Of a stretch of DNA of 64,000 nt, positions 644 through 41,061 are shown one piece after another. Within the stretch, counting starts at the first letter, position 1. The number at the start of each line of letters is the position of its first letter. The notes under the pieces are model-generated. The model did no database searches. It was not told where the DNA came from and worked only from the letters and a program-made list of their open reading frames with translations. Made by a program: the position numbers and the translations under genes. Origin of the DNA: a virus; IMG/VR virus record IMGVR_UViG_3300033074_002003; one strand, given 5' to 3'.

Positions 644-650
644 CTACTTA
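644..650 (+). promoter_or_regulatory. Instance of the recurring ATACTTA-like motif (CTACTTAGACAC), about 30 nt upstream of the 680 start. Candidate late-promoter element.
   Basis: The sequence tacttagacac is also found at 20881 upstream of sheath gene 2. Confidence 0.3.
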
Positions 651-679
651 GACACTGACAGTACTCCCGGAGAAGATAG

Positions 680-2341
680 ATGGCGCTGATTACGGATCCT
701 GACTCGCTGAATGATGGCTCGGTAGACAACGGATCGACAGAGGTATACATCAATACCTCAAACAGGACGATCAAGCTGAACACGACAGGAAACCTGTCGA
801 CAGACGGTGTGACGATGAAAGCGCTGTACTCCTTCCTCAAAGAGGAGTGGAGAAGCGATCCCAACACAAAGAATCTCGCCGCGTTCCCATTCCCGATGGT
901 TCCGATCACCGACGAGTCGTTCGAGGTCGTCGACGGATGGGACTTCTACAACGATGCCGCGCGTTACCTCATCCGAACGAGCGGGTGGACTGTCAAGAAT
1001 ACATCTGCTGCTACGACGCAGAAGTGGTCAGGCATCATCGGTCTAGGATCGATCGAATCAAACGACCAGCTGTACATGGACCAGCTCTCCGGTTCGTTCG
1101 ACGCGCAGCTACAGGGACAGATCAACCAGGCTGTCCTCATCCTCAGCGACTCGAACGGCGACGGCAACTACGACTTCAGCAAGAGGACGAGCTTCAAGAT
1201 CTTCGTCCGCGAGCAGGCACAGACGTACGACGACGCTAACTTGGCTGACATCGGTGTTACGACGCTCGACTCGATCGCTTACCGCTTCCCGATTTCTACC
1301 GCAACTGACCTAAAGGTCACCAACGCAGATTCGGTGATCACCGGAACGAGCCCCTACACAGAGATCAGCGTCAAGTACTTCACGGGTTCTTTTAAACGCG
1401 ATGTTGACACGACAAACCTAGCTCGTCACTTCGGTGTGGTGATCGATGTCGGAACGCACTCGGGTGTCGACGGCGCGTTCACGTCCGGGCAGAGCGTTCT
1501 TACCTCGTCCGCGGGCGGTATCTCGGGTTCTAACTTCACGGGCGGTACGCTCGTAATTCACTCTGGTTCTGCGAAGGGAACGTACAATCTCAGCGCTCCC
1601 GTGGGCGGCGACGGGAATAAGTTCTCGATCACAACGACGTTCCCAGCGACGCAGACGAGCGCGTCCTTCACACTGTACAAGTCGTCGTCACTCGGAGCAA
1701 CAGCGGAAGAGATCTACGAAAAAGTCCAGTATCTTCTGAGACAGAACAGCAACATCAATGCAATTCCGACGGGTTCGTACAACGTTACGGGAAAGACAGC
1801 AGACCTCCTGCTCCGTTTCGTCGGTGATACGCTCGAGGCCGGAACGCTCAGCCCCACAAACCCAGCGTCCGGTTCGACGCGTACGGGTGTTATCATCGAA
1901 GGCTTCGCATCCAGCGATACGAACAGGTTGACCTTCCGCGACAACAACGGAACTGACAGGACATATCCGTACGTTGCCGTGCTGTCGTTGCTCTTTGGTT
2001 CAAACCTCACGGCAGACGCATCTGCCAAGTACTGGGTCTATTTCACGACACTGCCCGGTGCATCAGACGACTTCGGGCAGTCAGGTGCGACGATCGTAAA
2101 CGACAACAGCAGTTTGCCGATGTCAGGAAGCATTTCTGGACAGGCCACGATCGAAAAGTCTTTCAACTACGACGGCAACGTTCAGGGTGGCCGCACGCCG
2201 GCGACTGACGCCGATGTAACGGTCGTCGCGATCGGGTTGAGCACGGGACAGTACGTGCGTGCGGCAGGAACGATCGCACGGTCAACTTCCAACTCGATCA
2301 CACTCGTCGCGCCTCTCGAGAGAAATTACGAGAACCCATAA
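680..2341 (+). CDS. Hypothetical virion structural protein, S/T/G/N-rich and fibre- or decoration-like.
   Basis: A 553-aa ORF with low-complexity, beta-rich Ser/Thr/Gly composition typical of fibre or adhesin proteins. It sits in the structural block and is preceded by the ATACTTA-like motif. Confidence 0.6.
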   Translation: MALITDPDSLNDGSVDNGSTEVYINTSNRTIKLNTTGNLSTDGVTMKALYSFLKEEWRSDPNTKNLAAFPFPMVPITDESFEVVDGWDFYNDAARYLIRTSGWTVKNTSAATTQKWSGIIGLGSIESNDQLYMDQLSGSFDAQLQGQINQAVLILSDSNGDGNYDFSKRTSFKIFVREQAQTYDDANLADIGVTTLDSIAYRFPISTATDLKVTNADSVITGTSPYTEISVKYFTGSFKRDVDTTNLARHFGVVIDVGTHSGVDGAFTSGQSVLTSSAGGISGSNFTGGTLVIHSGSAKGTYNLSAPVGGDGNKFSITTTFPATQTSASFTLYKSSSLGATAEEIYEKVQYLLRQNSNINAIPTGSYNVTGKTADLLLRFVGDTLEAGTLSPTNPASGSTRTGVIIEGFASSDTNRLTFRDNNGTDRTYPYVAVLSLLFGSNLTADASAKYWVYFTTLPGASDDFGQSGATIVNDNSSLPMSGSISGQATIEKSFNYDGNVQGGRTPATDADVTVVAIGLSTGQYVRAAGTIARSTSNSITLVAPLERNYENP

Positions 2342-2406
2342 GGTTCACAGTATAAATCCCACGGCGATTTTTCTCGCCGTGCTGCGTGAAGTGATGAGCG
2401 GAAGAT

Positions 2407-6640: not shown

Positions 6641-6646
6641 TACTTA
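6639..6646 (+). promoter_or_regulatory. ATACTTA motif instance (GATACTTA), 22 nt upstream of the 6668 start.
   Basis: Recurring motif; see findings. Confidence 0.3.
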
Positions 6647-7226: not shown

Positions 7227-7260
7227 TGCCCGTGTCATACGTAACCATATGACACGGGCA
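7227..7260 (+). promoter_or_regulatory. A 13-bp perfect inverted repeat (TGCCCGTGTCATA - 8 nt - TATGACACGGGCA) whose right arm contains the ATG of the patatin-like gene. Candidate translational attenuator and/or terminator for the upstream gene.
   Basis: Read directly from the sequence. The right arm spans 7248..7260 and the ATG is at 7249..7251. Confidence 0.5.
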
Positions 7261-8118
7261 TTGGTACTTTCTGGGGGTGCTTGCAAGGGAAGCTATCAGG
7301 TCGGCGTGCTCCGCAAGTGGATGCTTGAGGAGCGCCGAGAGTACGACATCTTCTGTGGAGTCTCTGTCGGCGCGCTCAATGTTTCGCTCCTCGCGCACTA
7401 CAGGGACTCGCGCGAGGCACAGTTCGCTCTCGAAAATGTGTGGAGGCATCACGTAAGCAATGACGCGATCTATCGGAGGTGGTTCCCATTTGGGAGGGTC
7501 TCTGGCCTCTGGAAACACTCGCTATTCGACTCGTCTCCCCTCAGAGAGCTCGTCATGTCTCGCATTGATGTGCAGAAGATCAGGGAGTCAGGAAAGAGAC
7601 TGTCTGTCGGAGCTGTCTGTCTTGAGACCGGAGAGAAGGTGTTCGGCACTGAGGAGGACGATAACCTCGCCGAATGGGTCCTTGCGTCAGCGAGCTATCC
7701 GGTTTTTTTCACACCCGTGAACATCGGTGGCAGGTTCTGGTTCGACGGTGCGGTGAAAAACATGACGCCGCTCGGCAGAGCGATCGAGCTCGGCGCGACC
7801 GAAATAGACATGATCGTGTGTAGCAATCCTGATGTGCAGCGTCCGGTTCCGCAGCAACAGAAGTCTTTTCCGCTGTACAGGCAGATTTCGCGCGTCGTTG
7901 ACGTGATGTCGGACCAGGTGCTGCGGACAGACATGCAAATCACGTCACTGAAGAACCAGCTCTCACGAGCCCGCGGCGACCTCAGACCAGTGACAGTCAG
8001 GTACGTCCAACCCGCAGAGCGACTCACAGAAAATTCGTTCGACTTCGATCCTAAGACGATATCCAAGATGATCGAAAAGGGCTATAGAGATGCCTCTGAT
8101 GGAACTCTGATCCTCTGA
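7249..8118 (+). CDS. Patatin-like phospholipase.
   Basis: An oxyanion GGxxKG-like motif (LSGGACKGSYQVGVL), a GxSxG nucleophile (GVSVGA) and a DGA catalytic Asp (FDGAV) appear in canonical patatin order. Confidence 0.8.
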   Translation: MTRALVLSGGACKGSYQVGVLRKWMLEERREYDIFCGVSVGALNVSLLAHYRDSREAQFALENVWRHHVSNDAIYRRWFPFGRVSGLWKHSLFDSSPLRELVMSRIDVQKIRESGKRLSVGAVCLETGEKVFGTEEDDNLAEWVLASASYPVFFTPVNIGGRFWFDGAVKNMTPLGRAIELGATEIDMIVCSNPDVQRPVPQQQKSFPLYRQISRVVDVMSDQVLRTDMQITSLKNQLSRARGDLRPVTVRYVQPAERLTENSFDFDPKTISKMIEKGYRDASDGTLIL

Positions 8119-8615: not shown

Positions 8616-8689
8616 GGACACGTAGTCTAACTGGCAGCGATGGCCGACTCAAAATCAGCAGTGTGTGGGTTCGAATCCCACCGTGTCCA
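8616..8689 (+). tRNA. tRNA with anticodon CAA. It has type I (short variable arm) geometry, a mismatch in the D-stem and a C-A mismatch in the anticodon stem, so it is non-canonical for tRNA-Leu.
   Basis: Hand-folded. The acceptor pairs GGACACG with CGTGTCC, the T-arm is GTGGG-TTCGAAT-CCCAC, the anticodon loop is CTCAAAA (U33, A37) and the discriminator is A. Confidence 0.5.
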
Positions 8690-8697
8690 CGACAAAT

Positions 8698-8769
8698 AGG
8701 CCCGTGATGTAGCTGGAAGCATTGACGATTCCAAATCGTTACGCGCAGGTTCGAATCCTGCCGGGTCTG
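8698..8769 (+). tRNA. tRNA-Trp (anticodon CCA).
   Basis: Hand-folded. The acceptor pairs AGGCCCG with CGGGTCT (one G-U), the D-arm is ATGT-AGCTGGAA-GCAT, the anticodon arm is GACGA-TTCCAAA-TCGTT and the T-arm is GCAGG-TTCGAAT-CCTGC. Total length is 72 nt. Confidence 0.8.
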
Positions 8770-8776
8770 CGAAAAT

Positions 8777-8848
8777 GTCCCTGTAGCTCAGGAGAAGAGC
8801 GGGCGCCTTCTAAGCGCAAGGTCGGGGGTGCGAATCCTCCCAGGGATG
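8777..8848 (+). tRNA. tRNA-Arg (anticodon TCT). CCA is encoded immediately 3' at 8849..8851.
   Basis: Hand-folded. The acceptor pairs GTCCCTG with CAGGGAT, the D-arm is GCTC-AGGAGAA-GAGC, the anticodon loop is CTTCTAA and the T-arm is GGGGG-TGCGAAT-CCTCC. Confidence 0.75.
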
Positions 8849-8862
8849 CCAAGGAAAGAAAG

Positions 8863-9039
8863 ATGCTAATTTCCCCCACGAAGAAGAAGATCGAAGAGCT
8901 GACACAGAGAATTCGCGAGATCAAGAGCGCGAAGGTCCCAGCAGAAGATGTAGCCGAACTCGAGACAGAGCTCAATCAGCTGAAAGAGCAAGTCGAGCAA
9001 GAGTCACAGTCGCAGGGTTCCGCTCTTCTCAAGGGCTGA
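8863..9039 (+). CDS. Small coiled-coil protein. The track ORF 8722..9039 would overlap the tRNAs, so the likely true start is the internal Met at 8863.
   Basis: An aaggaaag RBS precedes the ATG at 8863. The sequence has a K/E-rich heptad-like pattern. Confidence 0.4.
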   Translation: MLISPTKKKIEELTQRIREIKSAKVPAEDVAELETELNQLKEQVEQESQSQGSALLKG

Positions 9040-9069: not shown

Positions 9070-10071
9070 ATGTCTGAATGGCTGCCCGAGGTTGTCAGGA
9101 TCGGTGAGGTATTTCCTCACCCAAATCGAGATCACGCCGATCCGAAGTTGAAATGTGATACGCTTTCGCTGACGATGGTTCACGGTGGCTATCCCGTGCT
9201 CTTTCGTACGGGCGAGTTCAAAGAGGGAGACCTCGCTGCCTACGTGCCGATCGATTCGGTCGTCCCAGAGAACCACCCGCTCTTTTCTTTCCTGGGTGAC
9301 AGCCGCAGGATCAAGGCGAAGAGGATGCGTGGCGTATTCTCGATGGGAATGCTCGTGAGAGCACCGGACGGTCTCGCGGAGGGTTCTTCTGTCGTCGAGG
9401 CACTGAACCTCACGAAGTACGAGCCCAAAGAAGAGACGCTGAAGATGTCGAGGGGTGTGAGCATCCCGGGACCCTCGGGATGGGAATTTCCGAAGTACAC
9501 AGACATAGAAGGAATTAGGCGCTACAAGCACGTCCTCCTCGAGGGTGAGGAAGTCGTCATCACTGAGAAGATCCACGGGCAGAACGCGCGGTTCTGTTGG
9601 GATCCCGACGACAAGAAGCTGTGGGTCGGATCTCGAACGACGATCAAGAAGCGCGACGCGACCGTGAACTGGTGGCACATCGCAAACAAGCTTGATCTGG
9701 AGGAGAAGCTCGCGAAGTTCCCACTCACGATCTTCTTCGGCGAGGTCTATGGCAAGTCGATTCAGGACCTCGCGTACGGACTCGAGCACAAGGATCTTCT
9801 CATCTTTGACACATTCGACGTGAAGACTGGCACGTACAACGACTGGGACGCGACAGTCGCTCTTGTCAAGGAAGCCGGGCTCAATCTCGTTCCGACGTTG
9901 TATCGCGGCCCGTGGCTCGGGTTTGAGGCACACAAACCCCTCTCGGAAGGAAAGTCTACGATCTGTGATCACATACGCGAAGGGTATGTGGTGAAACCCG
10001 TACACGAGCGCCGGGAACACATGGGACGGGTGATCCTGAAATGCGTGGGTGAAGATTACATGACGAGGTGA
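9070..10071 (+). CDS. RNA ligase 2 (Rnl2)-family ATP-dependent polynucleotide ligase.
   Basis: Motif I is EKIHGQN (KxHG), motif III is FFGEVYG, motif IV is LIFDTFDV and motif V is EGYVVKP. A ggag RBS lies upstream. Confidence 0.8.
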   Translation: MSEWLPEVVRIGEVFPHPNRDHADPKLKCDTLSLTMVHGGYPVLFRTGEFKEGDLAAYVPIDSVVPENHPLFSFLGDSRRIKAKRMRGVFSMGMLVRAPDGLAEGSSVVEALNLTKYEPKEETLKMSRGVSIPGPSGWEFPKYTDIEGIRRYKHVLLEGEEVVITEKIHGQNARFCWDPDDKKLWVGSRTTIKKRDATVNWWHIANKLDLEEKLAKFPLTIFFGEVYGKSIQDLAYGLEHKDLLIFDTFDVKTGTYNDWDATVALVKEAGLNLVPTLYRGPWLGFEAHKPLSEGKSTICDHIREGYVVKPVHERREHMGRVILKCVGEDYMTR

Positions 10072-10086
10072 CCGATACATATAAGA

Positions 10087-10953
10087 ATGACATACGAACG
10101 AAATTGTCCTCAATGTGCTAAGCAGATTACGTATAAAAACAAGCGTGTCTGTGAACGTGCCGAAGAATCAGGAAAACTCTGTGGATCGTGCGCTCGCAAA
10201 GAAGTATGGAATAGAGCTGATAGCTCATTTCGTTCTGATGTCACATGTGCAAAACGCAGCAAAGGGATGAAAGAAGCCTGGAAACGTCCTGATCATGGTA
10301 GAAAAAGCGAAGCATCAAAACGCTCATTCTCCGAGAAACGCAGAGCAATGCGTGAAGATCCCACTGCAGTTTACAACACAAAGAGTTTTCGTGACAAAGT
10401 ATCACAAGGTGTACGTACTGCACTTTCGAGTTCATTGACGAGGATGCTCGCGTCTGATGTTATTGCACGACGAAATGCATCAATAAAAAAGATGTGGACA
10501 GTTGAACGTCGAGATCAACATCGTGAACTGATGACTCGTTTGTGGAGTGTGACAAAAACTCCTTGGGAACACGAAAAAGGTTGTTGTGTTTCACAGTTTG
10601 AATTGAAATTTAAAGACGCTCTGCGAGAAAATGGTTTCTATCACTCTTCCGAACGTTCTGGATCGCTACGATGCATCGATCGATATATTCCTGACTACGT
10701 CGATCATGTGACAAAGCGTGTCGTTGAATTCAATGGCGACTATTGGCACTGTAATCCTAAGCATGAAGTGTTCGGAGATCCGACGTGGTACAACAAGAGT
10801 ATCAAAATGACTTCTCAAGAGAGATGGGAACATGACAAACGCCGCGAAGCAGTGATCTGCGAACATGGGTTTCACGTGATCGTAATTTGGGAAAGTGAAG
10901 CTAGTGATGAAACAAGCGTACTTTTGCGTGTCCAATCATCTGGTTCAATTTGA
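10087..10953 (+). CDS. Free-standing homing-endonuclease-like protein: N-terminal Cys cluster, NUMOD3-like repeats and a C-terminal Vsr-like nuclease domain.
   Basis: The N-terminus carries CPQC...CGSC. Repeats of the S.E.KR..S..G type follow. The C-terminus reads EFNGDYWHCNP...W..K...RWEHDKRREAVICEHGFHVIVIWESE, a Vsr/PD-(D/E)XK signature. GC content is visibly lower than in the flanks. Confidence 0.7.
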   Translation: MTYERNCPQCAKQITYKNKRVCERAEESGKLCGSCARKEVWNRADSSFRSDVTCAKRSKGMKEAWKRPDHGRKSEASKRSFSEKRRAMREDPTAVYNTKSFRDKVSQGVRTALSSSLTRMLASDVIARRNASIKKMWTVERRDQHRELMTRLWSVTKTPWEHEKGCCVSQFELKFKDALRENGFYHSSERSGSLRCIDRYIPDYVDHVTKRVVEFNGDYWHCNPKHEVFGDPTWYNKSIKMTSQERWEHDKRREAVICEHGFHVIVIWESEASDETSVLLRVQSSGSI

Positions 10954-11388: not shown

Positions 11389-11766
11389 TCACGTGACTTC
11401 TATCTTTCGTTTCTGCGAACCTTCTTTTTTCGGTATTTTGAGATGTAGCACGCCTGCATCGTATTTTGCTGTCATAGAGCCCACGTCATAGCTTTCGTTC
11501 ACAACGAACGTCTGCGAAATAGACTTGCTTGTCCCGACGCTTTTCTTTGCAGCGACAGAGACATTACGGCCCGTGCACTCTACGGTGATGTCCTCTTTGA
11601 GACACCCGGGAACGTCAAAGAAAATCGTGAGCCCATTTTCGTCAGTGCTCTTTTCGAACTTGTGATATCGATCGTCGTCAGCAAAGAGTTCAGAACGAAA
11701 CAGGCGAGCGAGCTGAAGTTCAGGGTACATGTTTTTCCTCCGTGCTCGCAACGATAAAACACACAC
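11389..11766 (-). CDS. Small heat-shock protein of the Hsp20/alpha-crystallin family. The start may be the internal Met, which would give 11389..11730.
   Basis: The alpha-crystallin domain is recognisable: FDVPGCLKEDITVE...VSV...SQTF..E...D...AKYDAGVLHLKIPK. Confidence 0.8.
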   Translation of the reverse strand: MCVLSLRARRKNMYPELQLARLFRSELFADDDRYHKFEKSTDENGLTIFFDVPGCLKEDITVECTGRNVSVAAKKSVGTSKSISQTFVVNESYDVGSMTAKYDAGVLHLKIPKKEGSQKRKIEVT

Positions 11767-12548
11767 AACGAAGCGTACATACCATGATCACAGAATTTGA
11801 TCGAAAAATGAAGTCTCTCGAGAAGTTTTCTTCACAGAGCGTTCCCAGTGGGACGTCTTTTGTTGTGAGGCTCGACGGTAGGTCATTTTCAAAGATGACA
11901 GAGAAGCACTTCAGGAAGCCATTTGACCCGCTGTTCAGCGCGATCATGGATAGAGTGACTGATAGCCTCGTGCGTGAGTTTGATTGCGTCGCGGCATTCA
12001 CACAGAGCGATGAGATTTCGCTGCTGTTTGCACCCGAGAACAAGCTATTTGCCGGCCGGCTCGAGAAAATTGTGAGCGTCACGGCATCGCACGCGTCCGC
12101 TGTGTTCACGAGGGCGTTCACTGACATCGTTACGTTTGACAGTCGAGTGATCGTTCCCGACAGCATCGGCGACCTGTCTTCTTACTTCACGTGGAGATTT
12201 GTGGACGGGTGCAGAAATGCGCTTAACACTGCGTGCTACTGGAACATGCGACAGTCGGGTGAGTCACGCCGTGCGGTGTCGAGGCGACTCGAGAGTGTCT
12301 CCCAGAACGAGAAGCTAGAACTTCTTGGGCAGAGGTGGGAGGACATCGATGAGAGGTTTCGGTTCGGACGTGTAACCGTGTGGGAACAATTCGAAGTAGT
12401 GGGATACAATCCCGTATTGAAAGAAGAGAGGAAGGCTACGCGCAGAGAGCTCGTGAGCTTTACCGATCCGAAGAAATTCACAGAGCTGCGTCACAAATGG
12501 TTCGCAGCAGAGAAAGAGAAAGAAGATGCGAGCAGCCTGGCTATCTGA
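11742..12548 (+). CDS. Thg1-like protein (tRNA-His guanylyltransferase family, 3'-5' nucleotidyltransferase).
   Basis: VVRLDGRSFSK...KPFD aligns with Thg1 VVRIDGKKFHEF...KPND. TQSDEISLLF aligns with GESDEYSFIL. FDSRVIVP aligns with FDSRCVAYP. WRFVDG aligns with WRYVDT. Confidence 0.9.
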   Translation: MLATIKHTQRSVHTMITEFDRKMKSLEKFSSQSVPSGTSFVVRLDGRSFSKMTEKHFRKPFDPLFSAIMDRVTDSLVREFDCVAAFTQSDEISLLFAPENKLFAGRLEKIVSVTASHASAVFTRAFTDIVTFDSRVIVPDSIGDLSSYFTWRFVDGCRNALNTACYWNMRQSGESRRAVSRRLESVSQNEKLELLGQRWEDIDERFRFGRVTVWEQFEVVGYNPVLKEERKATRRELVSFTDPKKFTELRHKWFAAEKEKEDASSLAI

Positions 12549-13325: not shown

Positions 13326-13333
13326 GATACTTA
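13326..13333 (+). promoter_or_regulatory. ATACTTA motif instance (GATACTTA), only 7 nt upstream of the 13340 ATG.
   Basis: Recurring motif; see findings. Confidence 0.25.
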
Positions 13334-13339: not shown

Positions 13340-13696
13340 ATGATTAGGGACCTCGTTCGAGCGATCATTGTCGAAGAGCTCGAGTCGATGAAGAACGACT
13401 ACGTCGTATCTCAGGACCTCGCACAGAAGAAAATTCGTCCCGTGACGTCTGAAGACGTCAAGATTCGATTCCCTGAGTTTCATACGCGTGTTGCAGAGGC
13501 GCTTTTTGAAGAAGAACGTATTGCTGACCTTCGCGGGATGAAGTGGGCATTCTACGCTAGCTCGTATTCACGGGTGACGCCATTTGCGTATGATCCCGTT
13601 ACGGGGGCCGTGTGTTACTGGCACGCTCCCTCACAGCGCGTCAAGCAGTCCGAAAATTCAGAGATCGACAACGCGATAATTCAGATGTCTCGGTGA
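13340..13696 (+). CDS. Hypothetical protein.
   Basis: A 118-aa ORF. Confidence 0.45.
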   Translation: MIRDLVRAIIVEELESMKNDYVVSQDLAQKKIRPVTSEDVKIRFPEFHTRVAEALFEEERIADLRGMKWAFYASSYSRVTPFAYDPVTGAVCYWHAPSQRVKQSENSEIDNAIIQMSR

Positions 13697-14664
13697 ATTT
13701 CATCGTCTGACATCTTGAAAAGTTCACATATTTGACCATCATCAGGTTCCCAGACAACAAATGACATGTTGTTTTGCTTGCAGTATAGAGCAGCAGCTTC
13801 AAATTTTGGGATATTTTTGTCACGAAGTTTGGCGGGTTTGACTTCTACAATGAACGTCTTCCCTGCGTTCGTGTGTACGATAAAATCGGGAACGTAGAAA
13901 TGCTCCGTGCCGTCAACACCAGTGTATTGAATGCGTAGCGATTCATATTCCCACGCGATAACCGACTCAGTTTCATCGAGCTCAATCATCGCTTTTAGTT
14001 CATATGATGACTTGTAGCGACACAAGTTTTTCACGGATTTGTGAGGCGCGTATTCTCCACGTTGCCAAATTCGTTCATTGTTGATTAGCTTTTTTGACAT
14101 CACTTCTGAGAGATGCTGTCGAGTTTTTTCATACGTTCCACACAACGCTCTAGTGTTGTATGTTTTCTTGCAAGAAGCGTCACGGCGAATCCTAATTTCG
14201 GGATTTTTGGCCCAAAACTCTTTCCAGTTTTCGCTCATTTTTTGTCTGAACTCAACAGACGTTGTTGCTTTACGTACAGCTTCACTACGTCGTCTGAGTA
14301 CATTGTCTGTCAAAAAATCGCGCATACGTTGTGCACGGAGCTTGCCCTCTTCAGCGTGCTCAGCGTAGTAACGTTTCATGTTTTTTGAATTTTTCACACC
14401 AACCAGTCGCTTGGTTTCTTCTGACATGGACACTTCATTGTGACCCCGAACATAGAAGTTGAAAGTACATGTGACATCATGAAATTTGACAGCAATACCA
14501 CATCCACATTTACACACTGGCCGTTTTCCGCCATGTTGTGTTTGGATTGCATACAGTTCCCAATCGAGATCGTGTTCAGATTTAACATGTTTGCGTAATT
14601 TTACGTTTGAATTGCTTTCAAACGCACAGATTGCACATTTTCGAATTTGCCAAGTCACAGTCAT
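13681..14664 (-). CDS. Homing-endonuclease-like protein with a C2H2-like zinc finger, a CKCGCG motif, NUMOD3-like repeats and a PD-(D/E)XK nuclease domain.
   Basis: The N-terminus carries CAICAF...HVKSEH and CKCGCGIAVKF. The C-terminus reads YVPDFIVH...IVEVKP. The gene is on the opposite strand to its neighbours and is AT-richer than the flanks. Confidence 0.7.
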   Translation of the reverse strand: MTVTWQIRKCAICAFESNSNVKLRKHVKSEHDLDWELYAIQTQHGGKRPVCKCGCGIAVKFHDVTCTFNFYVRGHNEVSMSEETKRLVGVKNSKNMKRYYAEHAEEGKLRAQRMRDFLTDNVLRRRSEAVRKATTSVEFRQKMSENWKEFWAKNPEIRIRRDASCKKTYNTRALCGTYEKTRQHLSEVMSKKLINNERIWQRGEYAPHKSVKNLCRYKSSYELKAMIELDETESVIAWEYESLRIQYTGVDGTEHFYVPDFIVHTNAGKTFIVEVKPAKLRDKNIPKFEAAALYCKQNNMSFVVWEPDDGQICELFKMSDDEIHRDI

Positions 14665-14714
14665 AGATATGTCGATGCTTAGACTGTGATACTACATTTG
14701 TAGTAGATGTGTCA

Positions 14715-14722
14715 CATACTTA
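14715..14722 (+). promoter_or_regulatory. ATACTTA motif instance (CATACTTA), 6 nt upstream of the ATG at 14728.
   Basis: Recurring motif; see findings. Confidence 0.25.
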
Positions 14723-14727
14723 ACAGC

Positions 14728-15912
14728 ATGACGCGATTCGTAGACGTGATTAGACCCACGCCATTTTCATTGTTTGACACAGATCCCGACTTCCAGCGTG
14801 AGGCCGATGGGATGGTGACATTCGTCAAGCGAAAGCTCGGAGACGACATCCTCCCAGTTGAGCTCACGTCACGACAGATCTATGCCGCATTTGAAGAGGC
14901 GACCGTAGAGTACGGTGCCACAGTGAACATGTTTCAGATTCGCTCGCAGCTCGCGAGCCTGCTCGGATCGCCCACGGGTAGTTCTGGCAGCATGACAAAC
15001 AAGTACCCGCACAACTCGCTCGATTTTCTGATGAGGCTTGCAGAGCCCTACATCCAAGAGACGGGGTTCGGTGGGTCGCAACCCGTTGACCTGTGCTACA
15101 TAGACATCGAAAATGGCAGGCAGGATTACGATCTCTACAGGGAACTGAAGATCGGTTCTGGCTCTATGAGCGGTTCTCTGTACTTTCCGAACCTTGCGAG
15201 CGGTAGTCACTCGCGTCTGAAAGTCTGGGAGGTGTTTCACTTTGAGCCGATGGCCGCGCAGCACTTCCTGCTGAACGCCTCGAATGTGACAAACTTCTTG
15301 GCGAACGAGTTCAACTACGAATCGTACGTGAACTCGACAGTGTTCTATGTCCTGCCCATCTTTGAAGACGTTCTGCGCCGCGGCATGATGGAAGCAGCTG
15401 CTCGCGTCAGGCGATCAAACTACAGCTACCAGATCACGGGTGGCAAAATTAGAATTTTCCCTGTCCCGACAGAGACGCGCGTAGCTCACACGCTCTGGAT
15501 GCGCGTCTCACCAAGCGTGACGGACGCTCTTCGCCCGCCATTTCAGGACGATTCGGTGTACGGTGTCTCCGGATTCTCAAACGCTCCGTTCTCCAACATT
15601 CCCTACTCGACCGTGAACGACGTGGGCCGGTGGTGGATACGTGAGATGACGTTCGCCATTGCACAGGAGATCCTGGGTAGGGTGAGGTCGAAGTTCAAGA
15701 GCCTACCCATTCCAAACAACGAAGTCGTGCTCAATGGTGAAGAACTCGTCACCCAGGCCCGTGAGAAGCAGGACAAACTGCGAGACACCCTGCGAGAGGA
15801 CCTCGACAAGCTCACTCTTCCCTCTCTGATAAATCAAGAGGCAGACAAGGCTGAAGCCATGTTGAGGATGCTCAGGGTAATTCCTATGCGGTCGCCGATC
15901 ATTATCGGATGA
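14728..15912 (+). CDS. Virion structural protein in the gp13/14/15-like position before the sheath. The track ORF begins at 14707; the start was chosen at MTRFVDV.
   Basis: An ORF of about 394 aa in the structural block. No recognisable catalytic motifs. Confidence 0.55.
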   Translation: MTRFVDVIRPTPFSLFDTDPDFQREADGMVTFVKRKLGDDILPVELTSRQIYAAFEEATVEYGATVNMFQIRSQLASLLGSPTGSSGSMTNKYPHNSLDFLMRLAEPYIQETGFGGSQPVDLCYIDIENGRQDYDLYRELKIGSGSMSGSLYFPNLASGSHSRLKVWEVFHFEPMAAQHFLLNASNVTNFLANEFNYESYVNSTVFYVLPIFEDVLRRGMMEAAARVRRSNYSYQITGGKIRIFPVPTETRVAHTLWMRVSPSVTDALRPPFQDDSVYGVSGFSNAPFSNIPYSTVNDVGRWWIREMTFAIAQEILGRVRSKFKSLPIPNNEVVLNGEELVTQAREKQDKLRDTLREDLDKLTLPSLINQEADKAEAMLRMLRVIPMRSPIIIG

Positions 15913-16580: not shown

Positions 16581-16592
16581 TAGTTATCGAGC

Positions 16593-17795: not shown

Positions 17796-17803
17796 CATAC
17801 TTA
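17796..17803 (+). promoter_or_regulatory. ATACTTA motif instance (CATACTTA), 45 nt upstream of the sheath 1 start.
   Basis: Recurring motif; see findings. Confidence 0.3.
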
Positions 17804-20880: not shown

Positions 20881-20888
20881 CGATACTT
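20881..20888 (+). promoter_or_regulatory. ATACTTA motif instance (GATACTTAGACAC), 25 nt upstream of the sheath 2 start.
   Basis: Recurring motif; see findings. Confidence 0.3.
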
Positions 20889-20912
20889 AGACACGATTAG
20901 GGAGTGACATAA

Positions 20913-24917: not shown

Positions 24918-25297
24918 GAATCAGACTTAGCCAACTGCGTCAGATTATCAGAGAAGAACTGTCTGCCGTTGTTCCGCCGGGTGACGACTGGGAAGAGATC
25001 ATGGCGAGAGTCAAGAAATACCCAGGTCGCGGCGGTGAGCGGTACGAGGCGGGAACGGGCGGAGATCCGAGCCTGGGCCGCGGACAGCTAGAGCGTGACA
25101 ATCCCGAGGCCTTCGCCGCTCTTGAAGACATGTTCGGTGACACATCTAGCATTAAGGTTTGGGAAGAGATGGGCGCGCTGCACGCAACGGCTCCGGGCGG
25201 GCGGGGTGCGGGTTCTCTTCTCCTCTGGGGTGCGGACGGTCAGTGGCACAGGGCGTACGATCGCAGGAAGCGCGTCCGCGCGTCGGTTGATGGCTAA
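24914..25297 (+). CDS. Leader-family small protein 3.
   Basis: The N-terminus is MRIRLSQLRQIIREELSAVV. The ATGA overlap with the upstream stop suggests translational coupling. Confidence 0.5.
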   Translation: MRIRLSQLRQIIREELSAVVPPGDDWEEIMARVKKYPGRGGERYEAGTGGDPSLGRGQLERDNPEAFAALEDMFGDTSSIKVWEEMGALHATAPGGRGAGSLLLWGADGQWHRAYDRRKRVRASVDG

Positions 25298-25317: not shown

Positions 25318-25605
25318 ATGAAAATCAAACTCAGCAAACTGCGTCAAATCATCAGGGAGGAGCTGTCGCCGCCCGAGGGGACGACCCTCGATTCGCGCTC
25401 GCTCGCCGAAGCCACGCTAGAAGACGCGGACGTGCAGGAGTCGATTCGCGATCTAGCGATGAGCGTTACAAGTGCGCTGGGTGAGCTCATGGGACGCAGG
25501 GACATGGGTGAGCTTCACATACACTTTGCCAACGAGTTCTCTGATGCTGTCATCGAGATGATCAATGACGATCTCTTGCAGTTCTACGCAGAGAACCCGG
25601 AGTGA
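25318..25605 (+). CDS. Leader-family small protein 4.
   Basis: The N-terminus is MKIKLSKLRQIIREELSPPE. Confidence 0.55.
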   Translation: MKIKLSKLRQIIREELSPPEGTTLDSRSLAEATLEDADVQESIRDLAMSVTSALGELMGRRDMGELHIHFANEFSDAVIEMINDDLLQFYAENPE

Positions 25606-26771: not shown

Positions 26772-26856
26772 TTTGTTTATTTAATTTGTCGAAATTGTAA
26801 ACGAGCGCATATCTAGTCCTGTGTGACACTGAGTTGTTTGGTGTCCCAAAAGAAAG

Positions 26857-27357
26857 TTGGATGCGAAAATCGCTGAAGTTCTTGACGTTACAACTCTCCT
26901 TCCAAATAAGTACGAGCCAAAGCGAAAAGGGCGATGGTTGCTTGCGATAGAGGGTATTGACGCCTTCCTCTGCAAGACAGCCCAGAGGCCGCAGATCCAG
27001 ACAGAGCGCCTCGAGATCCCGTTCATGAACTCGCGTCGGTACATCGCGGGCAAGACGACTTTTCAGGAGATGTCAGTGACGCTCATGGACCCAGTCGCTC
27101 CCTCGGGCGCCCAGCAGGTCATGGAGTGGCTGCGCCTGCACTTCGAGTCTGTCTCGGGACGTGCGGGTTACGCAGACTTCTACAAGCGCGACGTGCAGCT
27201 CAAGTTGACAGACCCCACGGGAACGGTCGTCGAACTATGGGACGTGAAAGGCGCTTTCATAACCAACGTCAACTTCGGAGAGCTTACGTACGAAGACCAA
27301 AATGCCATCGAGATTCAGCTGACGTTGTCTTACGACAACGCTGTACTTCAGTTCTGA
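26857..27357 (+). CDS. Tail tube protein, T4 gp19-like.
   Basis: CKTAQRP...EIPFMNSRRYIAGKTTFQEMSVTLMD aligns with T4 gp19 CKATALP...KIPVGFMNRKINVAGDRTFDDWTVTVMND. The C-terminus GAFITNVNFGELTYEDQNAIEIQLTLSYD aligns with GLWPTNVGELQLDWDSNNEIQTFEVTLALDY. Confidence 0.8.
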   Translation: MDAKIAEVLDVTTLLPNKYEPKRKGRWLLAIEGIDAFLCKTAQRPQIQTERLEIPFMNSRRYIAGKTTFQEMSVTLMDPVAPSGAQQVMEWLRLHFESVSGRAGYADFYKRDVQLKLTDPTGTVVELWDVKGAFITNVNFGELTYEDQNAIEIQLTLSYDNAVLQF

Positions 27358-27383
27358 TCTCGACTCTGGATCGTTGCACCGCT

Positions 27384-27420
27384 CGAAAGGCCCTACGATG
27401 GGCCTTTCGACGTTTAATTT
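27384..27420 (+). terminator. Rho-independent terminator (CGAAAGGCCC-tacgat-GGGCCTTTCG, then ACGTTTAATTTT) after the tube gene.
   Basis: A 10-bp perfect stem and a T-rich tail lie immediately downstream of the tube gene stop. Confidence 0.55.
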
Positions 27421-27436
27421 TGTTCTTGTTGGAACG

Positions 27437-29095
27437 ATGAGATACAACTTGATCATGTTCAAATGTCCTCGTTGCGATCGCGAATTCTGTTGGGCTGCCA
27501 AGCTCGAAAAACACATTGTAGCAGAGCATGGACTCGATCCCGAAGCGTTGTACATCGAGACACAGTGTGCTGGGGGAGTACCACAATGCGGGTGCGGGTG
27601 CCTCAGCAAAATCCCGTGGAACGGGTGGAAGCTGGGATTTTCCTCCAAGTTCCTCCGCGGGCACAACGCGTCATCCCAAGGAAATTTCTCCAATCCAGAG
27701 ATTCACGCTGCAGCACAGGCAACCCGTGTGAGCAACATTCGTTCCGGGAAGACGAAAATCTGGAACGCTGGAAAGACGAAAGAGACGGACGAAAGCCTGG
27801 CTCGAGCTTCTATCAAGAAGAGCGCGACAATGCGCGAAGGGTACGCTTCTGGTAGGATCAAAGCGCACTGGCTTGGTAAGACAAAAGAGACGTGCGATGC
27901 GCTCGCGCGCGGGTCTGCTACCAAGAAGCGTAACTTTCTAGAGGGCGTCTCTAAGGTCTGGAATGAGGGTCTTACACGCGAGACGTCAGAAAAGTTAGCT
28001 GGGATTGGCGACAGAATCTCTCACACGCGGGTGACGAATTATGATTCGGCGACGCGATACACGAGAGAAGATGTCACAAAAATAGCGGAAGAAGCGGGAT
28101 TTGAACTGCTATCAAATCCCGATGATTACAGAAACAAGTACCAACTACTTCACGTGAGGTGTCTAGAGAAGGGACACGACTCGCAACGAAATGTGATGAT
28201 GTTGCAAAATACACCGAAATGTCTTATTTGCCACCCGAAAGAATCGTGCGCTCAGCTAGAACTCTCTGCATTTGTCAGGTCGCTCGGCGTCGAGGTGTAC
28301 GAGTCGACGAGACGGGTTATCCCTCCCCGCGAGATCGATGTCTACTGTCCCGCGCACAAGTTTGGAATCGAGTTCAACGGACTGTTCTTCCACACAGACG
28401 CGACGAAGCACCCGCTCTATCACGAAGAGAAGACAGATGCAGCAACCTCTGTGGGTGTCAGACTGTTTCACGTCTTTGAGGACGAGTGGCGCGACAAGCG
28501 ACGGATCGTAGAGTCGATGGTGCGAGCTCGCCTGGGCATCGCGCCGCGGAGAGTCTTCGCTCGCAAGTGTGTCGTGAAGGAAATCACCCCAGAGGTCAGG
28601 CGAGAGTTCTTCGAGAGGACACACATTGATGGTGACGCTAGAGCGACGATCGCGTGGGGATTGTTCTCGGGCGATGAGCTCCTCTCTGTGATCTCACTCA
28701 GAAAACCGATTCGCAAATCTTTGGGTGTCACTGTATTTGAGCTCGCGAGATATTCTAGTGAACTCAACACATCTGTCGTGGGCGGTCTGGGCAAGCTTCT
28801 TGCACAGTGCAAACTCTGGCTCAGGGGTCGCGGCGTCAGAGTGCTGATGACCTACGTTGACAAGCGACACGGTGATGGCCACGGGTACGAGAGGCTCGGA
28901 TTTGCGTGTGTCGGAATCACGGGTTCTCCACGATTCTGGTGGACGGGTGGAGAGGTGGGACCGAACCGCGTCGATAGGCTGACATACAGAGCAGATTCGG
29001 AACGTGGACTCACCGAGAAGCAGGTGGCGGAGGACGCGGGGGTCAATCGGATCTACGGGTGCACGAACAAGGTGTATGAGCTCTCGATCGACTGA
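27437..29095 (+). CDS. Homing-endonuclease-like protein (C2H2 zinc finger, CGCGC motif, NUMOD3-like repeats, Vsr-like nuclease) fused to an extra ~250-aa C-terminal domain of unknown function. The start was chosen at MRYNL, downstream of the terminator.
   Basis: The N-terminus carries CPRCDREF...HIVAEHG and CGCGCLSKIP. Repeats read GKTKIWNAGKTKETDESLA. The nuclease region reads IEFNGLFFHTDATKHP...FHVFEDEW. A C-terminal tail continues to residue 573. Confidence 0.7.
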   Translation: MRYNLIMFKCPRCDREFCWAAKLEKHIVAEHGLDPEALYIETQCAGGVPQCGCGCLSKIPWNGWKLGFSSKFLRGHNASSQGNFSNPEIHAAAQATRVSNIRSGKTKIWNAGKTKETDESLARASIKKSATMREGYASGRIKAHWLGKTKETCDALARGSATKKRNFLEGVSKVWNEGLTRETSEKLAGIGDRISHTRVTNYDSATRYTREDVTKIAEEAGFELLSNPDDYRNKYQLLHVRCLEKGHDSQRNVMMLQNTPKCLICHPKESCAQLELSAFVRSLGVEVYESTRRVIPPREIDVYCPAHKFGIEFNGLFFHTDATKHPLYHEEKTDAATSVGVRLFHVFEDEWRDKRRIVESMVRARLGIAPRRVFARKCVVKEITPEVRREFFERTHIDGDARATIAWGLFSGDELLSVISLRKPIRKSLGVTVFELARYSSELNTSVVGGLGKLLAQCKLWLRGRGVRVLMTYVDKRHGDGHGYERLGFACVGITGSPRFWWTGGEVGPNRVDRLTYRADSERGLTEKQVAEDAGVNRIYGCTNKVYELSID

Positions 29096-29130: not shown

Positions 29131-29526
29131 ATGAGAATCTCGCTAGATGACCTGCGCCGTGTGATCTCAGAGGAGCTCCATCGCCTCGCCGAAGCGCCCC
29201 AGACGGATCCTGAGGAGCTCGCGGCCTCGCCCGAGTACGCCTCGCTCGAAGACTTTGTCCAGTTCAAGATGGACGAGGACGAATTCGAGTTTAGCTTCAT
29301 AGACCTGCAAGCGTTGAACATGTCGCTGCAGCGTCCCATGTCTTCGATCAGGGCTGAGCTCGAGGGTTACGGCATGAAGCTTTCTGCCCGCGCTCCAGAG
29401 AAGAGGACGCGCGGGTTTACCACGTCTTCGAACGATCGTTGGTTTGGCCCTGGCAGCCTCAAGACTCACGGTGGCGCGGGTATTGACAGCCATACAGGAA
29501 GAGCGACCACGAAGGGTGGGATCTGA
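29131..29526 (+). CDS. Leader-family small protein 5. The start was chosen at the internal Met.
   Basis: The N-terminus is MRISLDDLRRVISEELHRLAE. Confidence 0.5.
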   Translation: MRISLDDLRRVISEELHRLAEAPQTDPEELAASPEYASLEDFVQFKMDEDEFEFSFIDLQALNMSLQRPMSSIRAELEGYGMKLSARAPEKRTRGFTTSSNDRWFGPGSLKTHGGAGIDSHTGRATTKGGI

Positions 29527-30062
29527 TGGGCGCCGGTGACCTCCGGACGCTCGTTCGTGAGGCTGTGATCGATATCACTGGTCGCCTGCAGAAGAAGAAG
29601 TCGGACGCGTTCGCTGACAAGGTGAAAGACCTCGCGAGCTCAATCACGGGTGCGTTTGACCAGCAGCGCGAGCAGGAAGCAGCTGTCAGTGACGCGTTTG
29701 ATGAACTACCCGTGGGTGTGGACAAGATCGTGGGACAGAAGAGGTTTCGACTCGCCTGTCCGCTCGCATTTTCGGGCGACGAGGGGTGGCCACCGGACAC
29801 GTCCGTCTATACGATTGTCTCGCTCTTGCACCCGAGAGATTACTCGTACGAGCAGGTCGCTCGCTATATCGCCGCAAATGCCGATGTTTTTGCCGACTCT
29901 GTGCGGTGGCTCGACGATACCATCACCGGGTTAGAGAAGACGTTCGACGCGATGGACTGGCCCGCACCCTGGCGTCGCTACACGTCGTGGGGCAGTATCA
30001 CGCGTGATGTGCAGCGATACACGGATATCGTTGAGGACATCACGGGACAGGAGATCGTCTGA
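29526..30062 (+). CDS. Leader-family-like protein 6, a divergent member.
   Basis: The N-terminus is MGAGDLRTLVREAVIDI. ATGA overlaps occur at both ends. Confidence 0.45.
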   Translation: MGAGDLRTLVREAVIDITGRLQKKKSDAFADKVKDLASSITGAFDQQREQEAAVSDAFDELPVGVDKIVGQKRFRLACPLAFSGDEGWPPDTSVYTIVSLLHPRDYSYEQVARYIAANADVFADSVRWLDDTITGLEKTFDAMDWPAPWRRYTSWGSITRDVQRYTDIVEDITGQEIV

Positions 30063-30283
30063 TGGATCCGAAGCACACGAGCCTTCGCAGGATAATCCGC
30101 GCGACAATTGTTGGGGCCACAAAGGGTGAAATTGACGAATATCGCAGTGCGGCGGGCGGCGGAGCGAGGTACCCGCGGAGGTTCGACGTTTATCCAGAGG
30201 ACGGTTATGCTCCTGACGAACCAGCGATCGACGATCCCGAAGAATCGGACGGCGAAGGTGATTGCGGGTGCGATAGAACGTGA
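30062..30283 (+). CDS. Leader-family-like small protein 7, a divergent member.
   Basis: The N-terminus is MDPKHTSLRRIIRATIVG. Confidence 0.4.
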   Translation: MDPKHTSLRRIIRATIVGATKGEIDEYRSAAGGGARYPRRFDVYPEDGYAPDEPAIDDPEESDGEGDCGCDRT

Positions 30284-30288
30284 TACTT
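30281..30288 (+). promoter_or_regulatory. ATACTTA motif instance (GATACTTAG), 20 nt upstream of the 30308 start.
   Basis: Recurring motif; see findings. Confidence 0.3.
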
Positions 30289-30307
30289 AGCTGGGAGCTA
30301 GCACCCA

Positions 30308-34755: not shown

Positions 34756-34757
34756 TC

Positions 34758-36290: not shown

Positions 36291-36309
36291 TCGCATAGTT
36301 AGATGTGAA

Positions 36310-36576: not shown

Positions 36577-36592
36577 GGAAGAGAGGCCGTAA

Positions 36593-39500: not shown

Positions 39501-40858
39501 CGTCAGTTACTGGCATCATTAAAGCACTCGCGACGGTTCCTTTCGCGGCCGACATGAAAGACAAGGTCGATGCCTTTGTCAAAGTATTGAGTGCGACAAC
39601 AGAGTTCGCTAAAGTGTACAGCGACATTCTCACTGCTTCACGACCGACATTCATGCAGCTCGTGACGGGAAATTCAAAGTCTGCCAAAGACGATCTTGAC
39701 GCAGTGACGAAATTCGTCAGTACGATGATCGGGCCCCCGGGTGGAATGATCGGTCTCGTCACGACGCTCATGGACGCAATCACGAAGTTGAGTGGAGAAG
39801 ACCAGACTGCACGTAAGGCCGCCGAAACGATGGCCGGTCTCCTTTCCGCGCTCGCGACGATGGCAGGTGCTATCGCACCCCCGAAAGAACTGTTTAGCAA
39901 CGGTTTCAAACTCATCGAGACTGGTGACGCAACACGCAACGCCTTGCAGGGTTCGCAAGACTATGTCTCTACAATGACGTCATCGATTCAATCGTTGATG
40001 GACAAGGTCAAGACATTCATAACGTTCATGAAAACAGGAGGAATCTCCGAAAAGGACCTACAAACAGCTGCTCTGATAGGCCCGCTGTTCCAAGCAATAG
40101 CACAGATCACTGTTGCTTTGAAGCCTACACCCGAACTGATTAATGCTGCGAAAGACGCAAAGGGCGACGTTCAAGGGAACGTAATGGTCCAAATTGGCGA
40201 CCTCATCAGAGCGCAGGGTAACCAGGTGAAAAGCGTCGTAGAATCGATGGCCAATAGCATCATGCCCGCTGCTAAGTCGCTCGGTGGGCTCGACAAAGGG
40301 CAGATCGAAAGTTTGAAAGTCGTCGCGCCGCTGATCGACAGCCTCTTCAAAGCTGTTTCAAATATCACAGGTGCATTCACGACAATCTTGTTGTCAAAGA
40401 ACCTGAACACAGGCATCGACACGAAGAACAACCTCATCAAGGTCATGATGAGCAGCGTCGGGACAATGATCCAGAGCGTGGCCACTGAACTGCCGAGCAT
40501 CTTTACGTCTCTTTCGGCGATGCCGAAGATCGCCGAGAAGGGTGCCATCGAACAGACGAAGACGTCGCTGAAGGTTGTGGGTGACATGATCGCGTCGCTC
40601 AACTCGCTCACTTCGATGCTCTCTGACGGAAACCTCACGAAGCTAGACGTCGCGCCGAAGCTCGAGGCAATGGCGAAGAAGGTCGGCCTCGGTGGCAGCG
40701 GAACCTATACCATCACACACAAACCCATTACGATAACGCTGAACCTCGATATCCACATGGACGCGAAGCAGATCGAGTACGGCATCATCAACCGCAACGG
40801 CCTCGGACAGAAAGTCGTCGTTGTCTACGACGAAGAGAAGCGCAAGAACAACGTATGA
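36593..40858 (+). CDS. Tail tape measure protein.
   Basis: A 1421-aa, alpha-helical, A/G/K-rich protein with periodic motifs and C-terminal hydrophobic G/A-rich segments. It sits in the canonical position after the sheath, tube and chaperone genes. Confidence 0.8.
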   Translation: MADDKSQLKVAEQLAKVLEQQAARLEGITREINAQYEITKKIIETVKSAGDLEDPLQKAKDVKGAIKEISEETSKGKDLATQHGEALKDAMTKSENSSLSFLKALQKVGGQFPVMKTAAIAATHGIVEGFRAAGAITSSFLKTTASIVTGIGKIGIAILSIPFKIFQALIDKAESGGGGNELAAAYEKVRKQFGDFRQDAAHNVIKTAHDIDKQFKETGLNTFMVFGNLAQRLEEVNKIATAMGATWDVLGKEFAENSGHLLAYQKGLGVAEENMKDFAQAAISSGKPMQEVMRETASLSLSMQKQFGGSAKLYSRDMSKMINDVKHFGGVSQKIMVEVAVYTRKLGLETEKLLGMLDKFDTFDEAAQSAAKLAQTYGAQVDAFKLMTAESPVEQLDMIRKAMFEAGKTAETMDRKDFKYIASLTAMDEASVRAALSSKNMGVSLDKVKEGSAKAEKQQLSQAEAMAKLAGAIERMTFSGQEKFGGFIKALIKGFNDGIEWSQDFMKVMFSIRQDMRIMYWAGRELGKVFVDSFPGVKDILQGIGEIFDPKKFQKLANGIVEVFKKFFTDMSDSPKTALPELMKNLKAKFFDFFNSESAAGSKVISGFRKFLMALGQIAGGVTKFMLESLRDGFKLITDLMSGKGAAQIGAGASGAKKFMIELFTPIFEAIRDVWPSLKDAFVTMIETAWDKIKKSGVIERAWEGLKKYMLVVGMGAMGAGAAKGIGALILGGLAKGVGGAVATGMAGLIGNAVKNAGTKAATAGGTNVLGSAAKTLGDKPAENASSLTGAAKKLDEGGKSGINWKGIGGFLLGLAGVIAVGLASLWGAIKIFGDVPVDKILKGLLVIGGVATALLPAAGAVALIGIAGRTIDPKSAAVGVGAIALAVGAMSLAIGAIYGAFSLLKVDFGRLKDFTSTILEMSKVFILTGGVVAEAMIIGAVITATGGVGGVAALAGFTAIGLGVAAMATSVTGIIKALATVPFAADMKDKVDAFVKVLSATTEFAKVYSDILTASRPTFMQLVTGNSKSAKDDLDAVTKFVSTMIGPPGGMIGLVTTLMDAITKLSGEDQTARKAAETMAGLLSALATMAGAIAPPKELFSNGFKLIETGDATRNALQGSQDYVSTMTSSIQSLMDKVKTFITFMKTGGISEKDLQTAALIGPLFQAIAQITVALKPTPELINAAKDAKGDVQGNVMVQIGDLIRAQGNQVKSVVESMANSIMPAAKSLGGLDKGQIESLKVVAPLIDSLFKAVSNITGAFTTILLSKNLNTGIDTKNNLIKVMMSSVGTMIQSVATELPSIFTSLSAMPKIAEKGAIEQTKTSLKVVGDMIASLNSLTSMLSDGNLTKLDVAPKLEAMAKKVGLGGSGTYTITHKPITITLNLDIHMDAKQIEYGIINRNGLGQKVVVVYDEEKRKNNV

Positions 40859-41061
40859 GAGACGACGTGCTAGAACGCCTGAGGGCCCACCCTCTCTACA
40901 AGAAGTCCATTGAGGGACTCTCGGAAGCAGAACGACTGAAGATCGAGGAGACGGTCGAGTCTTTTGTCGATCAGCTATCGTCCGCGTTTGTGTCAGTCGC
41001 CTCGCGAGCAAAAGCGGAGGCAGCGAAGCCAGCGGGAATTTCCGGGTCACTTGGTACTTAG
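40855..41061 (+). CDS. Small hypothetical protein.
   Basis: A 68-aa ORF overlapping the tape measure stop (ATGA). Confidence 0.4.
   Translation: MRDDVLERLRAHPLYKKSIEGLSEAERLKIEETVESFVDQLSSAFVSVASRAKAEAAKPAGISGSLGT
41053..41060 (+). promoter_or_regulatory. ATACTTA-like motif instance (GGTACTTAG) within a short inverted repeat (GGTACT...AGTACC), 18 nt upstream of the 41078 start.
   Basis: Recurring motif; see findings. Confidence 0.25.

Follow-up and report, generated by a model that had tools for sequence, protein, structure and literature searches.

The 64,000-nt stretch of viral DNA analyzed here (IMG/VR record IMGVR_UViG_3300033074_002003, hereafter the window) carries in its intergenic spacers a short recurring word, TACTTA, which we regard as a probable late promoter element. 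The window has a GC content of 54%, is transcribed nearly all on the + strand, and is ∼97% coding, noncoding DNA amounting to ∼3% when genes are called with a 60-aa cut-off for open reading frames (ORFs). Among its virion genes are those for two tail sheath paralogues of ∼1000 aa each (17848-20868 and 20913-23963, both +), a gp13-like head-tail adaptor (14728-15912, +), a tail tube protein (26857-27357, +, with a TTG start), and baseplate proteins including the baseplate hub. From ∼47 kb onward follows a block for replication and nucleotide metabolism, which encodes a DNA polymerase fragment, a gp32-type single-stranded DNA-binding protein (SSB), UvsX, dUTPase, an RNase H-like exonuclease, a DnaB-type helicase, an intein-containing ribonucleotide reductase, and ThyX. 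On public contigs, this phage carries within the 10 kb that precede the window a Portal_T4 protein, the prohead protease (Peptidase_S77), and a major capsid protein of the Gp23 family. The genome is ∼306 kb in size, the longest contig with the phage measuring 305,889 bp. Judged by this T4-type set of portal, prohead protease, gp23 capsid, sheath, tube, UvsX, and gp32, the phage belongs to the T4 superfamily as one of its uncultured jumbo members. No deposited phage matched 10 kb of the window in a megablast search, and the nearest sheath among GenBank phages is ∼32% identical. The clade itself is large, with 2,779 portal relatives at E <= 1e-100 and contigs of up to ∼370 kb.

On the + strand, TACTTA occurs eight times, starting at 645, 6641, 13328, 14717, 17798, 20884, 30284, and 41055, and every copy sits in a short spacer 5 to 44 nt before a + strand start codon. 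These are the eight sites listed in the initial annotation, both sheath genes included, and all of them are present. The - strand has a single copy, at 26907, within the tail tube gene. Six of the eight read ATACTTA; since 645 reads cTACTTA and 41055 reads gTACTTA, the invariant core is TACTTA and not the (G/C)ATACTTA(G) originally proposed. Four copies of TAGTTA (16581, 36296, 52827, and 55470) and two of TATTTA (26778 and 49301) are likewise intergenic and precede genes, and 12 of 12 + strand copies of TA[CG]TTA lie before + strand genes. The annotated word is retained, with its exact form corrected to a core TA[C/G]TTA that follows (G)A.

The individual sites, all on the + strand, differ in how closely they approach the start codon. 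The box at 645..650 (cTACTTAgacac) lies 29 nt before ATG 680 of a gene for a 553-aa protein; those at 17798..17803 and 20884..20889 lie 44 and 23 nt before the start codons of sheath paralogues 1 (ATG 17848) and 2 (ATG 20913), respectively; and the one at 41055..41060, which overlaps the end of ORF 40855-41061, lies 17 nt before ATG 41078 (1010-aa protein). Two boxes touch the TGA stop of the upstream gene, namely, 6641..6646 (gTGATACTTA, 21 nt before ATG 6668) and 30284..30289 (18 nt before ATG 30308, 127-aa protein). At 13328..13333, the box is 6 nt before ATG 13340, which lacks a Shine-Dalgarno sequence and whose product bears an IREEL-type N-terminal leader (see below); at 14717..14722, it is 5 nt before ATG 14728 of the gp13-like adaptor gene; and at 16581..16586, a TAGTTA variant is 6 nt before ATG 16593 (394-aa protein). 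For these three genes, we predict leaderless mRNAs. The true start of the gp13-like gene is ATG 14728 and not the in-frame upstream ATG 14707, and the N termini of homologues in relatives concur. Further TAGTTA variants are found at 36296..36301 (8 nt before ATG 36310, 88-aa protein), 52827..52832 (10 nt before ATG 52843, 59-aa Cys-rich ORF), and 55470..55475 (15 nt before ATG 55491, the large subunit of ribonucleotide reductase with its intein). A TATTTA variant at 49301..49306 is 6 nt before GTG 49313 (62-aa ORF with an IREEL-like N terminus). The other TATTTA, at 26778..26783, is of uncertain membership; it lies 73 nt before TTG 26857, where the tail tube gene starts, and its spacer is a divergent one that adjoins a - strand HNH endonuclease gene. 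The variant boxes exposed two small ORFs missed with the 60-aa cut-off (52843-53022 and 49313-49501), and the phage's own flanks, 10 kb on each side, hold five further sites, all before genes. The description of the downstream genes as mostly structural is borne out for the sheaths and other virion genes, and has to be widened to ribonucleotide reductase and to small ORFs of the replication block.

The spacer 528-679 also holds a terminator-like hairpin (GGGACCAAAAGGTCCCTTTT) and a sigma-70-like match, TTAACT-17-TACAAT at 585-613, both upstream of the 645 box. Because hairpin, match, and TACTTA box are stacked in one spacer, this arrangement suggests dual early/late control of gene 680.

A compositional effect could in principle produce such a pattern by chance, the spacers being 46% GC versus 54% and TA-rich words being generally avoided in genes. 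When noncoding enrichment was scored for every hexamer in an unbiased scan, TACTTA ranked first (7/8 copies, p = 1.4e-10) and TAGTTA third (4/4). The same scan on a 49-kb late region of T4, serving as a positive control, returned TAAATA and TATAAA among the top words. Against a chance origin, TA[CG]TTA was observed 11 times inside noncoding segments, compared to 1.26 expected from dinucleotide shuffles, none of 2000 of which reached 11, while its reverse complement had no copies there. ATASTTA gave 10 matches, all on the + strand, versus 3.0 expected (0/100 shuffles reach 10). The comparison with shuffled sequence, which the initial annotation had named as one that could refute the motif, came out clearly in its favor. 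With the word also independently enriched in relatives, and with the spacer shuffles and an alignment of the region upstream of sheath 1 in 11 phages (see below) both excluding it, chance retains practically no probability.

No enrichment was seen for one-mismatch variants of the box in spacers, isolated candidates being TACGTA at 7238 and 35142 and TACATA at 10076. An extension common to 645 and 20884, TACTTAGACAC, was not above chance at one mismatch. Synonymous-codon shuffles showed TA[CG]TTA to be depleted within genes, both in sense (1 versus 4.6) and antisense (2 versus 10.3) orientation. We considered this avoidance as evidence of a DNA-level signal and dropped it; most TAnnTA words and all TTAA-containing words are equally depleted.

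To look beyond a single genome, we fetched 27 relatives via the sheath gene (44 to 58% identity, one 32%; 38 to 63% GC), 58 via the portal, and 58 via a protein upstream of terminase, 143 loci in all. A search with a downstream protein found no relatives, and stepping further upstream in the relatives yielded large structural-type proteins only. When the regions upstream of sheath 1 were aligned for 11 phages of 38 to 63% GC, the only conserved elements were TA.TTA(T), GGAG, and the ATG, the box being kept in 11/11 aligned relatives. Sheath-2 orthologues carry TACTTA, TATTTA, (TA)TAGTTA, or TACCTA at the same upstream position. TA[CGT]TTA is among the top intergenic words in many single relatives' loci; in the pooled sheath loci, 89 of 176 + strand copies fall in noncoding DNA, which makes up 4.5% of the sequence, compared to 31 of 126 for the reverse complement. 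Similarly, in the portal loci (573 kb), TAGTTA, TATTTA, and TACTTA rank just after Shine-Dalgarno words and are strand-asymmetric.

Relatives bearing the word span 29 to 63% GC, which argues that a phage-encoded factor reads the box, and not the hosts' own sigma factors. The latter would be expected if the box were the -10 element of ordinary host sigma-70/sigma-A promoters; it is, after all, A/T-rich, begins with TA, and stands at a bacterial-promoter-like distance from start codons. However, such diverse relatives presumably infect very different hosts, and the sequence logo of the sites departs from sigma-70/sigma-A promoters, which pair a TTGACA-like -35 with a TATAAT-like -10 whose A at position 2 and T at position 6 are invariant, in that the box ends in A where a conserved T would be expected at the last hexamer position, with no -35 element or TG extension. 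Moreover, sigma-70-type matches are not above shuffle expectation in two of three 20-kb blocks. We therefore hold host sigma-70 recognition to be very improbable.

A distant relative, the 484-kb uncultured phage LR756508.1 (186537-228390), apparently has two sheath matches as well, at two places in the record, its sheath being ∼30% identical to that of the window. It shows a different gene-proximal word, (A/T)nACTTAAA, 10 to 33 nt before starts and also before a sheath gene, which may represent yet another form of this type of promoter.

Turning to the anatomy of the element, the logo built from the 17 sites of this genome is G-A-T-A-[C/G]-T-T-A-[T/G], with the G-A supplied at three sites by the TGA stop of the preceding gene. 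Information is limited to ∼9 bp (box positions -2 to +6), and nothing is conserved 20 to 35 nt upstream where a -35 element would lie. That is, the sites show a single ∼8-bp box of the -10 type without a -35, which is the architecture of a T4 late promoter.

The distances between box and start codon fall into two classes, a narrow one of 5 to 6 nt (n = 5: 13328, 14717, 16581, 49301, and L032:13622) and a broad one of about 13 to 36 nt. Spacers of the broad class always hold a GGAG-type ribosome-binding site, for which the 5- to 6-nt class has no room. Two spacing classes with GGAG in the longer one only are what would fit a transcription start ∼6 nt past the box. Very short distances, of which two cases had been noted at the outset, are real and more numerous than in that first count. 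In contrast, in the 49-kb late region of T4, boxes lie 14 to 35 nt from the ATG and none is closer. Among the relatives, spacings of 5 to 8 nt recur. Their gp13-like adaptor genes have the box 10 to 31 nt upstream. GGAG occurs in spacers of 28 and 29 nt, the longest two among those with a box, as well as in one of 15 nt, and is lacking in shorter ones, as expected if the box sets the 5′ end of the mRNA.

On these grounds, we think it probable that the element is a late, phage-specific promoter of this T4-superfamily jumbo phage, namely, a T4-type single box whose consensus has changed from TATAAATA to nATAsTTA. In such a scheme, one box of 8 to 9 bp, G-A-T-A-[C/G]-T-T-A-[T/G], would act as a -10-type promoter that is not paired with a -35. 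If the analogy with T4 holds, host core RNA polymerase would recognize the box, at about -13 to -6, with the help of a small gp55-type sigma factor encoded by the phage, and the first transcribed nucleotide would lie ∼6 nt beyond the last A of the box. From most sites, this would yield 5′ leaders of roughly 10 to 40 nt with a GGAG ribosome-binding site, while at five sites the start codon would be located at the predicted start or 1 nt away, giving leaderless mRNAs. The predicted +1 of the 14717 site is the A of ATG 14728, and at the 6-nt sites, it would be one base before the ATG.

The same sense-strand-only placement upstream of genes would also be given by a signal in RNA, in which case a phage or host endoribonuclease would cleave polycistronic transcripts before selected genes, with no initiation taking place. 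T4 does have a sequence-specific endoribonuclease, RegB, and primer extension cannot separate initiation from processing (PMC2988020); furthermore, the codon-shuffle test for antisense selection at the DNA level was not specific. However, folding of the surrounding 86 nt revealed no RNA structure common to the sites, and a strictly invariant word of 6 to 8 nt would be unusual as an RNase target. Two boxes stand where transcription has to begin anew, one behind a - strand gene (14717) and the other past a terminator-like hairpin (645), and the length, composition, and placement of the box match those of T4 late promoters in a phage that is itself T4-like. RNA processing therefore appears improbable, if slightly less so than recognition by a host sigma factor.

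For a T4-type late promoter, the obvious candidate reader is a homologue of gp55, and the initial annotation had called for such a search. We built a hidden Markov model (HMM) from six diverse gp55 proteins (T4, KVP40-like, cyanophage, pelagiphage, Cr30, and Moby). Several results weigh against the promoter assignment. The gp55 HMM had no match in the window, in the flanks of 10 kb on each side, or in the 143 relatives' loci (∼2 Mb), which reach from ∼30 kb before the window to ∼9 kb beyond it, ∼190 kb of the 306-kb genome lying outside. Nor did any ORF of the window or its flanks match a sigma factor or an RNA polymerase when scanned against PHROGs and Pfam. In T4-like phages, gp55 adjoins gp47; the relatives have a gp47/46-like fusion between a primase-like gene and terminase, without a gp55 neighbor (assignments read from the translation). 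Three or four of the sites precede nonstructural genes, and the class is not strictly late or structural. Positions 5 and 6 of the box are unlike every described T4-type consensus. Finally, avoidance of the box within genes is not specific, TA-rich hexamers being depleted generally. The likeness to a T4 late promoter that had been noted at the start consequently holds for a compact, single-box, strand-specific, gene-proximal element with an nATAnnTA skeleton in a T4-superfamily phage, and does not extend to a gp55-like sigma in the sequence covered.

Other attempts to find the factor were equally negative. A gp55 profile scan of IMG/VR returned only pelagiphage-like contigs, and hhalign of gp55 versus a 185-aa neighbor gave no match. 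Neither gp33 nor gp45 turned up in the accessible sequence, although no search was aimed at either. As for the fusion gene, an example is the 1041-aa ORF at L151:4190-7315, upstream of terminase and portal in a relative, which apparently combines an Mre11/SbcD-like (gp47) nuclease with a Rad50/SbcC-like (gp46) ATPase and adjoins primase-like and RuvC-like genes (domains read from sequence).

These results raise the possibility that the promoter is read by a different phage-encoded system, either a non-gp55 sigma factor of the sigma-70 family or extracytoplasmic function (ECF) type, as annotated in PaBG or PhiM9, or a phage RNA polymerase encoded elsewhere in the 306 kb. The failure to find gp55 in any reachable part of the clade's genome would be explained, as would the missing T4-like gp55-gp47 synteny and a box center that differs from TATAAATA, and there are jumbo and distant T4-like phages known with other sigma factors (PMC7412058; PMC4621102). 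Yet gp55-type recognition has as its hallmark a short single -10-type box without a -35, two elements are the norm for ECF and sigma-70-type factors, all T4-related genomes reviewed have a gp55 homologue (PMC2988020), and a gp55 gene would have escaped the search if it lay in the ∼190 kb outside it. We consider such an alternative reader rather unlikely, albeit a more serious contender than RNA processing.

Combining the box with its spacing leads to a bolder proposal, which we advance tentatively and with more doubt than confidence: the clade may have re-specified late transcription, with a strongly diverged gp55 or a non-gp55 factor reading nATAsTTA, and may routinely make leaderless late mRNAs from boxes that abut the start codon. 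To our knowledge, neither a re-specified late reading factor nor routine leaderless late mRNAs have been described for T4-like phages. A literature search for the motif string and for leaderless T4 late mRNAs returned nothing relevant.

Several boxes precede genes that have a second feature in common. At least eight otherwise unrelated small proteins carry a common 17-aa N-terminal leader, M[K/R]I[K/R]LSxLRxIIREEL, as revealed by alignment. They are encoded at 24097-24531, 24516-24917, 24914-25297, 25318-25605, 29131-29526, 29526-30062, 30062-30283, 13340-13696, 49313-49501, and L032:18325-18798, and several of these genes carry the promoter box. The T4 prohead protease cleaves according to the rule L/I-x-E. 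The I-R-E within the leader fits this rule, and the phage has a Peptidase_S77 gene shortly before the window; the 17 residues may mark internal head proteins for the capsid or act as their propeptide.

Other signals concern word usage. TTAA is strongly avoided in the whole window (22 versus 92 +/- 9 expected from dinucleotide shuffles), and CTTAAG and CCTAGG have no copies, compared to 21 and 8 expected from codon shuffles, which suggests restriction avoidance or a constraint from DNA modification or its targets. A second intergenic word, TTCTGAACACA, has two exact copies, at 47389-47399 before the DNA polymerase fragment gene and at 62189-62199 before the RlaP gene. Copies of the related TTCTGTACA precede the SSB gene and also occur in the head module (TTCTGTACA-like at 49484; L029:4554-4594). 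Counts with mismatches were not above chance; this second word could be another promoter class or an operator.

The gene content around the boxes has some peculiarities of its own. Genes of the homing-endonuclease type are unusually many (3-527, 10087-10953, 13681-14664 on the - strand, 25608-26771 on the - strand, 27374-29095, and 52494-52829), and several sit between virion genes, e.g., between sheath and tube. The ribonucleotide reductase gene (55491-59141) holds an intein with an HNH domain inside. Three consecutive tRNA genes at 8616-8851 specify Leu-CAA, Trp-CCA, and Arg-TCT, and the mechanically called ORF that overlies them (8722-9039) is spurious. There is also a set of RNA and tRNA repair genes, comprising two or three RNA ligases, a Thg1-like tRNA-His guanylyltransferase, an RlaP nucleotidyltransferase, and a PNKP-like kinase/phosphatase (9070-10071, 11742-12548, 62226-63308, 63310 to the end, and L032:11085-13592). 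Auxiliary genes amid the structural region encode a patatin-like phospholipase (7249-8118), a peptide deformylase (L029:3139-3630, inside the head module), and an Hsp20 protein (11389-11766, - strand).

The box can serve as a promoter model for the T4-like phages of the 300-kb class that form this large uncultured clade. It permits operon prediction and start-codon correction, as illustrated here by the shift from 14707 to 14728 and by the two newly exposed small ORFs. The variation among C, G, and T at the box center within the clade could be matched to sigma variants once the recognizing protein is found. If confirmed, the predicted leaderless late mRNAs would represent an unusual mode of translation initiation for a T4-type phage. 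Taken together, we interpret the element as a T4-type late promoter of new sequence form, found in a clade that is itself new and widespread; the predicted leaderless class is the most unusual feature.

How does this element compare with known systems? In T4, the late promoter consists of one 8-bp box, TATAAATA, which is positioned at about -13 to -6, lacks a -35, and is read by the host core polymerase together with the small sigma factor gp55 (PMC2988020). T4 late promoters are served by the gp55 sigma, the gp33 co-activator, and the gp45 sliding clamp. T4 and the present phage are alike in having a single box of ∼8 bp without a -35, located before virion genes in short spacers or overlapping the preceding stop. 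Five of eight positions are identical to TATAAATA, the common skeleton being nATAnnTA, and some relatives carry TATAGTTA, which matches T4 at six of eight positions. The center of the box is CT, GT, or TT here, as opposed to AA in T4, and its distance to the ATG goes down to 5 to 6 nt, compared to never less than 14 nt in the 49-kb T4 late region. Exact TATAAATA does not occur in the 64-kb window, and its one-mismatch matches there (5 versus 6.5 expected) are not systematically placed before genes.

Within the superfamily, T4-like cyanophages have late promoters NATAAATA/NATATAATA, as quoted in PMC3184105. These keep an AAATA core, whereas the clade described here uses sTTA; both may be viewed as lineage-specific drift of the T4 box. 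Elsewhere, a late motif was not identified in ViI-like phages (PMC3184105), and searches with the T4 consensus found no late promoters in pelagimyophages (PMC7029224). Among giant phages, the promoters of the non-virion RNA polymerases of phiKZ/AR9-type jumbo phages are likewise very short and start-site-proximal. Those phages, however, stand outside the T4-like group and have genes for split multisubunit RNA polymerases; no such genes were seen in our scans of window and flanks. The predicted leaderless class resembles the leaderless mRNAs of lambda cI and many actinobacterial genes in that a -10-type box lies 5 to 6 nt before an ATG or GTG, leaving no room for a Shine-Dalgarno sequence.

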